DNA from: Pseudomonadota bacterium
GTDB taxonomy: Bacteria; Desulfobacterota; Desulfobacteria; Desulfobacterales; RPRI01
Direction of reading: 5' to 3'
DNA length: 64,000 bases
Assembly (NCBI GenBank): GCA_018901125.1
Contig: JAHIFE010000178.1
Span: 4,989 to 68,988, forward strand
Position 1 is the stretch's first letter; each line of letters begins with the position of its first letter. Positions 36,786-39,844 of the stretch are shown here, piece by piece. Made by a program: the position numbers and the translations under genes. The notes beneath the pieces are model-generated. The model ran no database searches. It had not been told where the DNA came from and worked only from the letters and a program-made list of their open reading frames with translations.

Positions 36786-36793
36786 TGTCTCAG

Positions 36794-36816
36794 GGGGCAA
36801 CACATGTGGTTGCCCC
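36794..36816 (+). terminator. Intrinsic terminator of the PFOR gene
   Basis: GGGGCAAC-ACATGTG-GTTGCCCC followed by a T-rich tract. Confidence 0.75.
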
Positions 36817-36827
36817 TATTGTTATTT

Positions 36828-36910
36828 ATTGTTATAGTGGCAGGCCGTTTAACCTCAATCCTTTGATATTGCCTTCTGTAACCGAGGTATCCAATAACCG
36901 ACCTCCTTTA
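36828..36910 (-). pseudogene. Decayed 5' fragment of a PilZ gene paralogous to 39275-39616
   Basis: Minus strand SD TAAAGGAG, TTG, then ...YRRQYQRIEVKRPATITI versus VDRRQYHRIEVKWPATITL in the intact gene; a 1-nt shortfall puts the TTG out of frame and the rest of the gene is missing. Confidence 0.75.
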
Positions 36911-36999
36911 TCACAGCGCTAAATTCAAATTAAGCCTCACAACAGCCATACGGTAGATAGGTTCTATTTAATAGAGGTATCTTTCGATTTAGACTCTGA

Positions 37000-38832
37000 T
37001 TATTGAGTTTTAAAGCTCCAGAAAATATTCCCGTATACAGGCCCTTTGTACCAATAATATCCTCTTGTCGAGCTGTAGCATTGAGAACCTGATGTTATTT
37101 GTTTTATGACTGGACAAATGACTCCCTTTTCTTTCCAGCAGTCGATGCCACATGTAACGCCAGAGGGGCTTGACATCGGAGTGAATTCCCAGCATGACGT
37201 AAAAGGCCAAACAGGCTCATTGACCCATGTAAGTCTGCCGGCTCGAAATTCAGGACCACTTGACGATGTTGAGAATGAATCCCAGAGTCCCTGCCCACTG
37301 CACGTACCATTGCATGTATCCCCGCTCATGAATCCGTAAACACACGCCCCAGCAATGGGATCAGGTACTCTTCCATTGAAAACATCGTAGTAAACCGCTT
37401 CAGAAGTTGGTGTGTATTGGCCAATAGGTAGACCGGCATAACCGCCACTGTCCATAACGTAATAATACCTTTTGTGAAGGCTGTTAACATCACCGACAGT
37501 AAATGTATAATTGCTTGCATAGTTGAAGCAATATTGGGTTGCACCATAACAGACCCGGTATCCGCTTTTTCTTATGACCCTTGTCCTGATGTTCCATCCA
37601 ACGGCCCGCATCATGCCGATGGTGCCTGGCCCATATGCCCCGGCTTTTTCGGCTTCTCCATTAATGGTCCATACCATATAATAGCGTGCCTTACATGCCC
37701 AATCGGTAGACCCACAATTTGGTGTAGCTCTTACGTCCGTGGCCTGCTGAGCTCCAGATCCTTCAATATCTGAGACATCAAGGCTGAACGGTATGTCTCC
37801 CTGAAGGGTACTGCCTTGGATCTTGTAACGGTTAGGTACTTGGAACATCTTGCTATCCATAGTTATATCTGCGCCATTTTCCCTAAAACCAAGGTATCTT
37901 TTGTATTCGTTTTGAGCCTCATCCAGTCGGCCCAGCCTTTCAAGAGCAACTCCTTTCAAAAAATGAGGATAAAAAGCCCTATCCTCGGATGGTTTCAGCT
38001 GGTAAAGAACGGACAGTGCTTGCCGGTCTTTCTTCCTGTCCAACAAGTACTCTCCATAATAGACAACAGCGTTGATATCTCCTTCGTTGCGCATTGACAT
38101 TGACTTTACATAGAACTGATCAGCCCTATAGTCGTTGAGACGAGCCAGCGCCCGTGCATATTGGAGCGGTATATCACCATTGTGAGAAAACAGTTCAAGC
38201 ATCCGGGAAAAATACGTATCCAAAAGACCTCTTTCACCCAACAATGAAAGGCTGTATGCAACCTCAACATAGTAATGTGGGATACTCACTGGTTGGTCAT
38301 GATATTTGGTGCCTATCTCTTCTGCCGTGATATATGCCTCCGCAGATTTTCGGAGATACACAATATCATCTGTGACCTCGTAAAGCTCACCGTAGATTCT
38401 TGCCAAACCTTCGGTGAGGTGTCGGCTCTCAGGATATTTTGCTTGAGCTTTCCGGATGCGTATGACTGAAGTATTGAGCCACTCTCTTGTTTCTAAGCCC
38501 CCTGTTTCTATCTTTTCACTGAAAACCCGTTCTTTTACCGATTGGCCGATTCGATTCATTGTATCAAGATAGAGACTGAGAATCTCCTGATTCTCATTTA
38601 CATCCACATAATCAGGTCCAATCAGCCTGAACTGGTCAACAACCTGCTTATCGACGTTGTCAATTTCCATGTCAACCTGAATTGCACTGCATTCGATGGT
38701 TCCGTCTCCCCTTTCATCACATTTTTCACAGTTCGTTCCATAAACCACTGGATTATACATGCATATAATAAGGAAGCTTAAAAAACCGATAATGAAACAG
38801 CGGGCAATTCGCAAAAAGTATCTTGTTTTCAT
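37000..38832 (-). CDS. Secreted 610-aa protein: TPR-like helical region plus a Cys-rich C-terminal domain with a SleB/CwlJ (Hydrolase_2)-like motif
   Basis: SD GGAGGTG, signal peptide, TPR-like FLKGVALERLGRLDEAQNEYKRYL, motif MVWTINGEA...GMMRAVGWNIRTRV, 12 Cys in the C-terminal ~240 aa. Confidence 0.7.
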   Translation of the reverse strand: MKTRYFLRIARCFIIGFLSFLIICMYNPVVYGTNCEKCDERGDGTIECSAIQVDMEIDNVDKQVVDQFRLIGPDYVDVNENQEILSLYLDTMNRIGQSVKERVFSEKIETGGLETREWLNTSVIRIRKAQAKYPESRHLTEGLARIYGELYEVTDDIVYLRKSAEAYITAEEIGTKYHDQPVSIPHYYVEVAYSLSLLGERGLLDTYFSRMLELFSHNGDIPLQYARALARLNDYRADQFYVKSMSMRNEGDINAVVYYGEYLLDRKKDRQALSVLYQLKPSEDRAFYPHFLKGVALERLGRLDEAQNEYKRYLGFRENGADITMDSKMFQVPNRYKIQGSTLQGDIPFSLDVSDIEGSGAQQATDVRATPNCGSTDWACKARYYMVWTINGEAEKAGAYGPGTIGMMRAVGWNIRTRVIRKSGYRVCYGATQYCFNYASNYTFTVGDVNSLHKRYYYVMDSGGYAGLPIGQYTPTSEAVYYDVFNGRVPDPIAGACVYGFMSGDTCNGTCSGQGLWDSFSTSSSGPEFRAGRLTWVNEPVWPFTSCWEFTPMSSPSGVTCGIDCWKEKGVICPVIKQITSGSQCYSSTRGYYWYKGPVYGNIFWSFKTQ

Positions 38833-39229
38833 TTATGCACCTCCCAAACAGTAATTTTTGAATATGCTCTTTCTTCCTATAAACCTTTAAAACAACATAT
38901 GATTTTAAATTTTATAATTCCATAAAAAAATGTCAACAAAATCTTTAGAGGTCGAATTTTGAATTACTGTTATTATACGAACCCTATAAACCATCATACC
39001 GAACTTGATCCATATATAGATTGCCGGATAGCACTAAAGCTTGTTTAATGCCCGCATTTGTGGAAATGGCGAAAGGAGTTTGTCCGGCTGTGATTTAAAA
39101 GTACGGAAGAAATCTCCTCACATACAAAGTAACCAGCAATAATTTGAAAATATTTACACTTTGCTTTAGGTTGGAAGTAAATAACTATTTGTTATTGTAT
39201 AGTAATGAACTATAAATTAGGATAGGTGA

Positions 39230-39253
39230 AGGGGCAGCCACAGGGTTGCCCCT
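39230..39253 (+). terminator. GC-rich hairpin with T-tract, paralog of the PFOR terminator
   Basis: AGGGGCAGCC-ACAG-GGTTGCCCCT followed by GTTTTGTTTTT; same GGGGCA.C..GTTGCCCC arms as 36794-36816. Confidence 0.6.
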
Positions 39254-39274
39254 GTTTTGTTTTTAAGGCGAATT

Positions 39275-39616
39275 TCATACAATATTTGCGGAAACAAAAT
39301 CTTCGAAATACTTTTGGTCTTTATCAAATATTTTGACAATACATATTCCGATTCCTACCGTTTTATTCTCATCATCTATTGCACAAAGATCAGACCACAT
39401 AACTTTACCGGAAATTTGTATTACCTCATAATCGGGGGGCATTATCTCTATTGAATATATTTCACCCAAATAGAGAGCTTCATCACAGCATATTGATATA
39501 CCCTGAGCACATATATTATTGATTTCGCACTCAGCAACTTTGCCGTTTAATGTAATAGTGGCAGGCCATTTAACCTCAATCCTGTGATATTGTCTTCTGT
39601 CAACAGGGATACTCAA
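39275..39616 (-). CDS. Stand-alone PilZ-domain protein
   Basis: RRQYHR (RxxxR) and NICAQG (N/DxSxxG variant); TTG start after AAGGAG. Confidence 0.85.
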   Translation of the reverse strand: MSIPVDRRQYHRIEVKWPATITLNGKVAECEINNICAQGISICCDEALYLGEIYSIEIMPPDYEVIQISGKVMWSDLCAIDDENKTVGIGICIVKIFDKDQKYFEDFVSANIV

Positions 39617-39844
39617 TATTAAATCTCCTTTAATAAAGTTCCAAATTGAAAAATCACCAGATTTGTCTGATCCTTATAATTGTAAAATACTGCAAAGTCA
39701 AACAATAAGACTCAATAATTTATACAGATTCATGACAATTGCTGTATGAGTGCGTCAAATTTATTTGACAGTATTTAGATGCCGTTGTATTTTTAAAATA
39801 AACTGCCTATATAAAATGCCTTTTTTAAAACAAATATTATAAGT

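Follow-up and report, generated by a model that had tools for sequence, protein, structure and literature searches.

Proteins of the SleB/CwlJ superfamily, or Hydrolase_2 (PF07486; structures 4F55 and 4FET), depend on an essential catalytic Glu (PMC12331253). We describe a strongly derived new branch of this known superfamily, not a new kind of system, carried by a single gene on a 64,000-nucleotide stretch of DNA from a bacterium of the Desulfobacterales (contig JAHIFE010000178.1 of assembly GCA_018901125.1, positions 4,989 to 68,988; hereafter, the window). The gene, hereafter the target (37000..38832 (-)), is a complete open reading frame (ORF) of 610 amino acids plus stop; its predicted product is an exported protein that joins a tetratricopeptide repeat (TPR)-like region to a Cys-rich, Hydrolase_2-like C-terminal domain (C-domain). 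Reading from the sequence, and with slightly better than even confidence, we take this product to be an enzyme that would use Glu393 to cleave the glycan strands of peptidoglycan and would be tethered or regulated by its TPR-like domain; catalysis, substrate, and the role of that domain are all predictions.

In Zymomonas mobilis, the Hydrolase_2 protein "SleB" remodels vegetative peptidoglycan (bioRxiv 10.64898/2026.07.21.739787). Like the target, this protein and other Gram-negative Hydrolase_2 members are exported, are of the Hydrolase_2 type, and occur in a non-sporulating diderm; unlike the target, which is far more divergent and built on another architecture, they are canonical. The host genome holds a canonical copy of its own, and a whole-genome scan with PF07486 finds only this separate gene on contig 60 (locus L001, 46620-47285; 92 bits), not the target. 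The canonical gene encodes 221 amino acids with a lipoprotein-type signal, follows a hybrid sensor kinase in unremarkable chromosomal surroundings, and is the only one of its kind among the 17 genomes of the genus.

Other members of the superfamily are antibacterial. In beetles, Hydrolase_2 genes gained by horizontal transfer serve as antibacterials (PMC7807722), and T6EC3 is a SleB-like effector of a type VI secretion system (T6SS), invisible to Pfam and toxic in the periplasm, in which the Glu equivalent to that of SleB is conserved and essential (PMC11148199). The target shares with T6EC3 a conserved Glu and a divergent SleB-like domain without Pfam annotation. It differs in that T6EC3 is recognized by Foldseek against 4F55, has an adjacent immunity gene, and sits in a T6SS context, none of which is true of the target. 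In layout, the target also recalls the Slt70-type soluble lytic transglycosylases, which consist of an N-terminal alpha-helical repeat domain and a C-terminal catalytic domain with a single catalytic Glu. Both are exported proteins in which a long helical-repeat domain precedes a domain that cleaves glycan strands (in the target, by prediction). The resemblance is an architectural analogy only; the catalytic family of Slt70 is SLT/GH23-like, whereas that of the target is Hydrolase_2-like.

Homology to the SleB/CwlJ superfamily

The relationship to Hydrolase_2 emerges from profile-profile comparison with hhalign, in which the reference was a set of 18 canonical Hydrolase_2 domains taken from genomes of the phylum to which the window belongs. 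An alignment of 100 family sequences matched this reference at 94.9% (P 4.7e-8); a reversed template gave P 0.1 and shuffled templates gave P 0.22-0.93, with control scores of 8-16. The Chloroflexota clade of the family, taken alone, matched at 97.3% (P 2.3e-11) over 75 columns that span GEARGE, AVA..V.NRV, the V-strand, QF, and the helix before D.T.GA. The clade that contains the target (the window clade) in turn matched the Chloroflexota clade at 99.7% (P 4e-27, 126 columns). Since the window clade resembles the Chloroflexota clade, and the Chloroflexota clade resembles Hydrolase_2, homology is transitive but solid: judged by these alignments, the target's C-domain would descend from the same ancestor as Hydrolase_2, with the Chloroflexota clade as the bridge. 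The first-pass annotation, made from the sequence of the window without database searches, had pointed to a Hydrolase_2-like motif; the likeness reflects a real homology signal at the level of profiles, although it does not extend to a Pfam match.

Single-sequence searches of the bridge clade agree. Three of the 6 Chloroflexota C-domains match PF07486 (E 8.5e-4, 0.034, and 0.073; profile positions 1-69 of 100), and Hydrolase_2 is their sole match among 24,736 Pfam families. One of the other three has a weak unrelated match (RsgI_N, E 0.26), and two have none. On PF07486 the Chloroflexota relatives score 14-20 bits, under the gathering threshold of 27 bits.

The divergent core of the domain (residues ~376-545; 37198..37707 (-)), placed by hhalign with controls, is similar in size to that of Hydrolase_2 and follows its motifs in order. 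Helix 1 ends in GEA, where the canonical sequence has GEARGE; its Glu393 (37654..37656 (-)) aligns with the catalytic Glu of the canonical (Y/W)xEARGE motif and is invariant in the family, both in close (22/22) and in distant (78/78) relatives, that is, in 100/100. In the target this residue stands in INGEAEK. Helix 2, GMMRAVGWNIRTRV, comes next: the family pattern RAVGW.(I/V)R(T/N)RV corresponds to the canonical AVA.V..NRV, and the target's RAVGWNIRTRV keeps the Ala, the Val, and the Arg (R418) of AVAxVxxNRV. Residues 386-419 read MVWTINGEAEKAGAYGPGTIGMMRAVGWNIRTRV, and here lies the MVWTINGEA...GMMRAVGWNIRTRV motif that had been noticed at the outset. Helix 2 is followed by a Cys-bearing hairpin insertion of ~30 residues, then GY at the site equivalent to QF, the helix SEAVYYDVFNG, and PDPIAGAC. 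Near-invariant positions in the family include G406, W413, R416, R418, Y456, and P490-D491-P492. In the Chloroflexota sister clade, QF and the helix before D.T.GA are colinear with their canonical counterparts; Q is kept in 57/78 and F in 62/78 members, and Asn stands at the NRV position in 24/78 distant relatives.

Predicted structure and the limits of the relationship

An AlphaFold2 (AF2) model of residues 368-610 (243 amino acids) is confident, with a predicted local distance difference test (pLDDT) score of 87.5 and a predicted template modeling (pTM) score of 0.87; a model of the core alone (residues 376-552, 177 amino acids) is fair, with pLDDT 78.8. The elements follow one another as GEA helix, RAVGW..R.RV helix, hairpin, two helices, and short strands, an order compatible with that of the Hydrolase_2 motifs. 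In the viral database BFVD, the top Foldseek match is to a phage protein annotated as "Cell wall hydrolase SleB domain-containing protein"; its E of 0.45 (TMq 0.25) is not significant. The comparison of the fold with SleB that the first-pass annotation had proposed thus gave a divided answer: no PDB match, and one weak hint from the top rank in BFVD.

Several results weigh against a Hydrolase_2 enzyme. PF07486 matches neither the full target nor its C-domain alone, even at E<=10, and HMMER searches of PDB sequences with two hidden Markov models (HMMs) of the family find no SleB. Searches of Pfam, NCBIfam, and PDB sequences, in which the queries were the protein, its C-domain, and two profiles of the family, returned no Hydrolase_2/SleB match at all; for this reason, a direct assignment of the target to Hydrolase_2 was rejected. 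Compared alone with the canonical domains, the window clade aligns in the same register at P 0.0025, and its own confident alignment covers ~34 columns. Within this clade, QF has become G/S/V-Y (Tyr in 22/22), and the Asn of NRV is Thr in the target and Thr, Asn, or Ala in 17, 3, and 2, respectively, of the 22 close relatives. Foldseek searches of the PDB gave a best E of 1.3 for the 243-residue model and 1.5 for the 177-residue core; 4f55 and 4fet were present in the database and were not recovered. For another homolog that escapes Pfam, Foldseek did find SleB (PMC11148199), and the target domain is therefore the more aberrant of the two. Finally, no RNA runs holding the target gene were found.

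Such gaps could be read to mean that the C-domain is unrelated to Hydrolase_2, that it is a new Cys-rich fold with a function outside peptidoglycan, and that its two-helix likeness (GEA...RAV..R.RV) arose by convergence. The ~34 columns, the lack of a PDB or significant BFVD match for either model, and the empty Pfam, NCBIfam, and PDB-sequence searches are all in keeping with this idea. We nonetheless regard it as quite improbable: the Chloroflexota chain runs over 75 columns and four colinear motifs (P 2e-11) with clean shuffled and reversed controls, 3 Chloroflexota members match PF07486 by HMMER and no other family, and the top-ranked BFVD match is itself a SleB-domain protein.

The altered motifs also invite the thought that the protein is inactive, a glycan- or peptidoglycan-binding or scaffold protein in which the helices derived from Hydrolase_2 form a binding surface and the TPR region recruits envelope proteins. 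Scaffolding is a typical role of TPR domains, all 22 sequences of the close clade have G/S-Y in place of the QF motif, NRV is altered at its Asn, and divergence is so extreme that Pfam and Foldseek signals are both gone; in addition, an operon in Chloroflexota, described below, pairs the family with a PD40 propeller and suggests a complex. This possibility strikes us as unlikely. Pseudoenzymes usually lose the catalytic acid first, whereas here Glu393 is invariant and G-E-A and R-x-R are kept over 100 sequences from at least 2 phyla, for which catalysis is the simplest explanation.

A third departure concerns substrate and mechanism. The C-domain may lie so far from the SleB fold that it represents a new enzyme family, an orphan to Foldseek, stabilized by disulfides or metal. 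Such a family would have another substrate or mechanism (its substrate might be a glycan of subsurface anaerobes that is modified or is not peptidoglycan) and would move as a single-gene module among Chloroflexota, Nitrospirota, and Desulfobacterota. We think this rather doubtful.

Under the preferred reading, that of a peptidoglycan-cleaving enzyme, the target would be a Sec-exported envelope protein whose C-domain belongs, in highly derived form, to the Hydrolase_2 (SleB/CwlJ) superfamily. This domain would most likely still cut the glycan strands of peptidoglycan, as a muramidase or a lytic transglycosylase, with Glu393 as the general acid; the TPR-like helical domain would probably position or regulate the enzyme through contacts with proteins or glycans. 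For cell-wall enzymology, this makes the target a candidate disulfide-stabilized lytic enzyme from strict anaerobes; it opens no long-standing question.

Layout of the exported protein

The N-terminus carries a predicted Sec-type signal peptide (residues 1-31; 38740..38832 (-)), identified by sequence reading and a hydropathy scan. It has a K/R n-region and a 15-residue hydrophobic core at positions 12-26 (Kyte-Doolittle up to 2.56), followed by VYG|TN; read from sequence, the N-terminus contains no canonical lipobox. Homologs have equivalent N-termini that end in A-x-A/E-like sites, and export is a feature shared with many non-sporulating Hydrolase_2 proteins.

The N-terminal helical domain (residues ~32-350; 37783..38739 (-)) is marked by family-specific motifs (D/PxNE, KYPESRH, and YAEYLLDR) and by 1-2 detectable TPR motifs, at residues ~207-235 and 258-322 (37867-38214). 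Its invariant residues include E261, L263, L264, F291, G294, E298, A306, and Y310. Against Pfam, the target stays below threshold for TPR_19, TPR_8, and TPR_2, the best being TPR_19 (19.4 bits against a cut-off of 25). TPR families (TPR_14, TPR_8, and TPR_2) do match 14 of 18 relatives, with a best E of ~2e-6, and MamA and designed TPR chains match target residues 266-322 at E 2e-4 to 0.02. The region can thus be called TPR-like, with 1-2 recognizable motifs. The initial description of it as a TPR region is supported in part, by the relatives and by MamA and the designed chains, and falls short of Pfam cut-offs in the target itself.

A conserved RYKIxGSxLQ segment, with an invariant Q344, leads into a short Ser/Gly/Ala/Thr-rich linker (residues ~351-372; 37717..37782 (-)). 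Beyond the core, the protein ends in a Cys-rich, beta-rich extension (residues ~546-610; 37003..37197 (-)), which closes with GPVYGNIFW, contributes AF2 beta strands at model residues 161-240, and in its present form is specific to the Nitrospirota-type clade. The C-domain is rich in Tyr, Gly, Trp, and Cys (8.6%, 12.3%, 4.1%, and 4.9%, versus 3.3%, 7.3%, 0.7%, and 1.5% in neighboring genes).

The last 243 amino acids hold 12 Cys, all of them 86-100% conserved in the close clade. Seven are common to the Chloroflexota clade and 4 or 5 are clade-specific; the latter include Cys561 and Cys585, and the insertion hairpin carries Cys428 and Cys435. DsbB was not found in the host genome. VKOR-type genes in the genome (84 and 75 bits) make periplasmic disulfides feasible, including the six with which the first-pass annotation had found the even number of Cys compatible, and the 12 conserved Cys probably form disulfides that stabilize the insertion and the C-terminal beta extension; a metal site may be an alternative. 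The signal peptide, the Ser/Gly/Ala linker, the Tyr/Gly/Trp-rich C-domain, and the 12 Cys in the last ~240 residues had all been recorded in the first-pass annotation, and each was recovered here.

Set beside SleB and CwlJ, the target thus combines shared and novel parts. It differs from them in lying below Pfam detection and out of the reach of Foldseek, in its G/S-Y in place of QF, in its 12 conserved Cys, and in the ~30-residue Cys insertion after helix 2 and the ~65-residue Cys-rich beta extension. Where SleB is joined to PG_binding_1, the target is fused to a TPR-like domain of ~320 residues, and it has no ypeB-like partner gene. The changes particular to the window clade (loss of QF, mostly Thr for the Asn of NRV, the ~30-residue Cys hairpin, and the ~65-residue beta-rich extension) illustrate how far a catalytic scaffold can drift: QF is lost, 12 Cys are gained, two insertions are added, and the catalytic Glu is retained.

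Distribution and probable horizontal acquisition

The target belongs to a genuine family, but a very rare one. Seventeen relatives at 29-54% identity came from a word-indexed search, and those that carry names are proteins from Nitrospirota or Nitrospiraceae metagenome-assembled genomes (MAGs); when 1.84 billion representatives were searched exhaustively with a profile, 92 matched. Among species genomes, a scan recovered a close group, represented by two paralogs in one Thermodesulfovibrionales MAG and by a Nitrospiraceae MAG, and a distant group, with members in Chloroflexota (Anaerolineae, Dehalococcoidia, and Thermoflexales) and in one bin labeled Bacillota. The distant group has the same architecture: a signal peptide, a PDPNE/YPxSRH N-terminal block, TPR, an RYRIxGSxxQ segment, and a Cys-rich C-domain. 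These sequences define a family of TPR-like and Cys-rich, Hydrolase_2-derived domains (~92 representatives among 1.8 billion) that Pfam and NCBIfam models do not cover, and they widen the range of the SleB/CwlJ superfamily to include Nitrospirota, Chloroflexota, and one Desulfobacterales genome.

Two side observations concern the relatives themselves. The two paralogs of the Thermodesulfovibrionales MAG are diverged and lie on different contigs (L004 and L006). Three distant relatives are much longer than the target (P0102, 2354 amino acids; P0076, 1242; P0024, 911), and P0102 matches the domain in four stretches; the module thus occurs also in multi-domain or repeated contexts.

Closer to the host, the family is missing. 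It is absent from 16/16 other genomes of the same genus, from 44 genomes of the same order, and from 400 genomes sampled across the phylum (255 genera). The target had been called an orphan; with 17 close and 92 representative relatives, the term holds only within its own genus, order, and phylum. An identical copy of the target protein in the same gene arrangement was assembled in 4 independent datasets, and the gene shows zero differences in contigs of 4 groundwater runs. The host was found in groundwater or subsurface samples, and it is N47-like Desulfobacterales because neighboring genes are 85-96% identical to those of Desulfobacterium sp. N47-type genomes: Memo-AMMECR1 shares 85% identity with its counterpart in Desulfobacterium sp. 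N47, and PFOR shares 96% with that of the relative G013.

In a maximum-likelihood tree, the target falls inside a clade in which all named members are Nitrospirota (support 97/92). Together with the absence from the phylum, a break in synteny, a duplicated hairpin, and the remnant of a PilZ gene (described below), this nesting points to transfer and local rearrangement. The gene was probably acquired horizontally from a Nitrospirota-type donor, the inferred direction of transfer. An N47-like host would have taken up the gene, which would have inserted, complete with a promoter and terminator of its own, into a variable junction next to PFOR. Seen in this way, the locus is a clean case of single-gene, cross-phylum transfer among groundwater anaerobes in which the scars of integration are visible. 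The same evidence bears out the "insertion-like context" that had been remarked on at the start.

Two points count against this origin. Most family members are unnamed metagenome proteins, so that the donor phylum rests on few labels, and no foreign signature is found in the guanine-plus-cytosine (GC) content or codon usage of the target, although a donor of similar GC would leave none. The target has a GC of 0.448, against a mean of 0.415 +/- 0.041 for ORFs of the genome (81st percentile of long ORFs), a z of +0.76 for GC at third codon positions (GC3), and a codon-usage z of -0.9. With GC, GC3, and codon usage all unremarkable, compositional evidence for a foreign origin was rejected. In the 3' half, 6 of 16 lines of 60 nucleotides reach at least 50% GC, with a median of 0.47; the elevated GC that had been estimated by eye for this half did not survive the formal analysis. 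The C-domain has a GC of 0.464 with an excess at codon position 2 (0.545), which therefore reflects its Gly/Cys/Ser/Thr/Pro-rich composition. These values indicate a transfer old enough, or a donor similar enough in GC, to leave no compositional trace.

The junction beside PFOR

The target's neighbors are PFOR, downstream and convergent, a PilZ gene, and a Memo-AMMECR1 gene. Two blocks meet here, an RR-kinase/Pyr_redox/Fer4/prismane/PFOR block and a Memo-AMMECR1/spermidine-synthase-like block. Each is conserved in the genus, the two are joined only in the host genome, and the region after PFOR (window 36786-39844 compared) differs in every relative. In G013, PFOR is followed by the flagellar genes flgK, flgL, csrA, and fliW; in G008 and G011 by a transporter-like gene; and in G016 by a PilZ-like ORF, with the order PFOR, a single hairpin, and the 3' end of the PilZ-like gene. 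The post-PFOR junction is a rearrangement hotspot in the genus.

In the window, this junction is marked by duplicated elements on either side of the target. An intact PilZ-domain gene (113 amino acids; 39275..39616 (-); PF07238, E 2.3e-10) lies upstream on the same strand, and just past the target's stop lies a decayed 5' fragment, PilZ' (36825..36945 (-)), which comprises an upstream region, a Shine-Dalgarno sequence, and ~22 codons; by sequence, the intact gene appears to be the source or sister of this remnant. The two copies of a 55-nucleotide direct repeat, at 36825-36879 and 39546-39600, are 91% identical and reach into the ribosome-binding site of PilZ, which shows that the sequence past the target's stop is a truncated PilZ' 5' fragment. 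A GC-rich hairpin is duplicated as well. One copy (36793..36817 (.)) lies between the PFOR stop and the PilZ' remnant and is likely a bidirectional terminator; the second (39230..39253 (.)) lies between the intact PilZ gene and the target promoter.

The target looks monocistronic, as had been proposed from the start, with its own predicted promoter and terminator. A -35/-10-like pair, TTGACA-16-TAAAAT (38936-38909 (-)), and a strong Shine-Dalgarno sequence, GGGAGGTG, before the ATG (38845-38838 (-)), both by consensus match only, precede it; hairpins stand on both sides, and PFOR is convergent.

Presence/absence polymorphism of the repeat-bracketed segment was sought as well and was not seen: contigs of 4 metagenome runs contain no deletion joints of this segment, and contigs show presence, not absence. 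A minor feature of the comparison is that the PFOR ortholog of G016 (G016:C64:8747-12283) has a single in-frame TAG and apart from this matches over its full length at 92% identity; the TAG could be a sequencing error or mark a pseudogene.

Gene neighborhoods of the relatives and the question of a weapon

In Chloroflexota, the family has a conserved setting (L007-L021, for example, L008:799-4872 and L016:4172-7817) in which an OmpR- or LuxR-type response regulator is followed by the family protein and then by a PD40 lipoprotein, a secreted, TolB-like beta-propeller. The three-gene set may be a functional partner system that loosely recalls sleB-ypeB, and its context suggests an envelope-housekeeping role for the family. 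Nitrospirota-type loci have no conserved neighbor in common. Neither the PD40 propeller and response regulator nor the gene downstream of the homolog in L004 and L005 has a counterpart in the host genome, and a conserved partner or immunity gene for the target was rejected on this account.

These neighborhoods bear on whether the target is instead an exported antibacterial weapon, a bacteriolysin or effector that was acquired horizontally and kills neighbors rather than remodeling the producer's own wall. Its very patchy distribution and cross-phylum nesting, its solitary position at a variable junction under a promoter of its own, and the suitability of disulfide-rich domains for extracellular stability would fit a weapon, and precedents exist in SleB-like T6SS effectors (PMC11148199) and in the antibacterial Hydrolase_2 of beetles (PMC7807722). 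We judge it improbable on several counts. Nearby there is no adjacent candidate for an immunity gene and no secretion-system, toxin-delivery, or phage gene; the neighbors PFOR, PilZ, and Memo-AMMECR1 agree with the earlier remark that no immunity gene is obvious. PHROG matches were insignificant, with no search of PADLOC made, and a phage link for the target was rejected. A Sec signal is the only export signal that the protein bears, and in a diderm such a signal leads to the periplasm of the producing cell; the Chloroflexota operon, with its response regulator and PD40 lipoprotein, resembles envelope housekeeping and not a toxin-immunity pair.

Among the relatives, a Nitrospirota MAG (L077:10398-10712) has a PilZ gene after the homolog, on the same strand and in the position of the window's PilZ' fragment. 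A conserved enzyme-PilZ cassette was considered and rejected: the PilZ proteins of L077 and the window are not detectably similar, the other loci lack PilZ, and the match in position is probably a coincidence, since PilZ genes are so widespread. A gene of unknown function that is common to two Nitrospirota-type loci (L004:6807-8162, L005:3620-4324, and L078:3672-4304) lies directly downstream of the homolog. It encodes 210-451 amino acids without a Pfam match, overlaps the 3' end of the homolog in L005 and L078, and could be a partner or an inhibitor. Near the homolog in L078 (6011-8167) are also genes for a group II intron reverse transcriptase (RVT_1 and GIIM) and for ORF6N-domain proteins, which hints that its surroundings are mobile.

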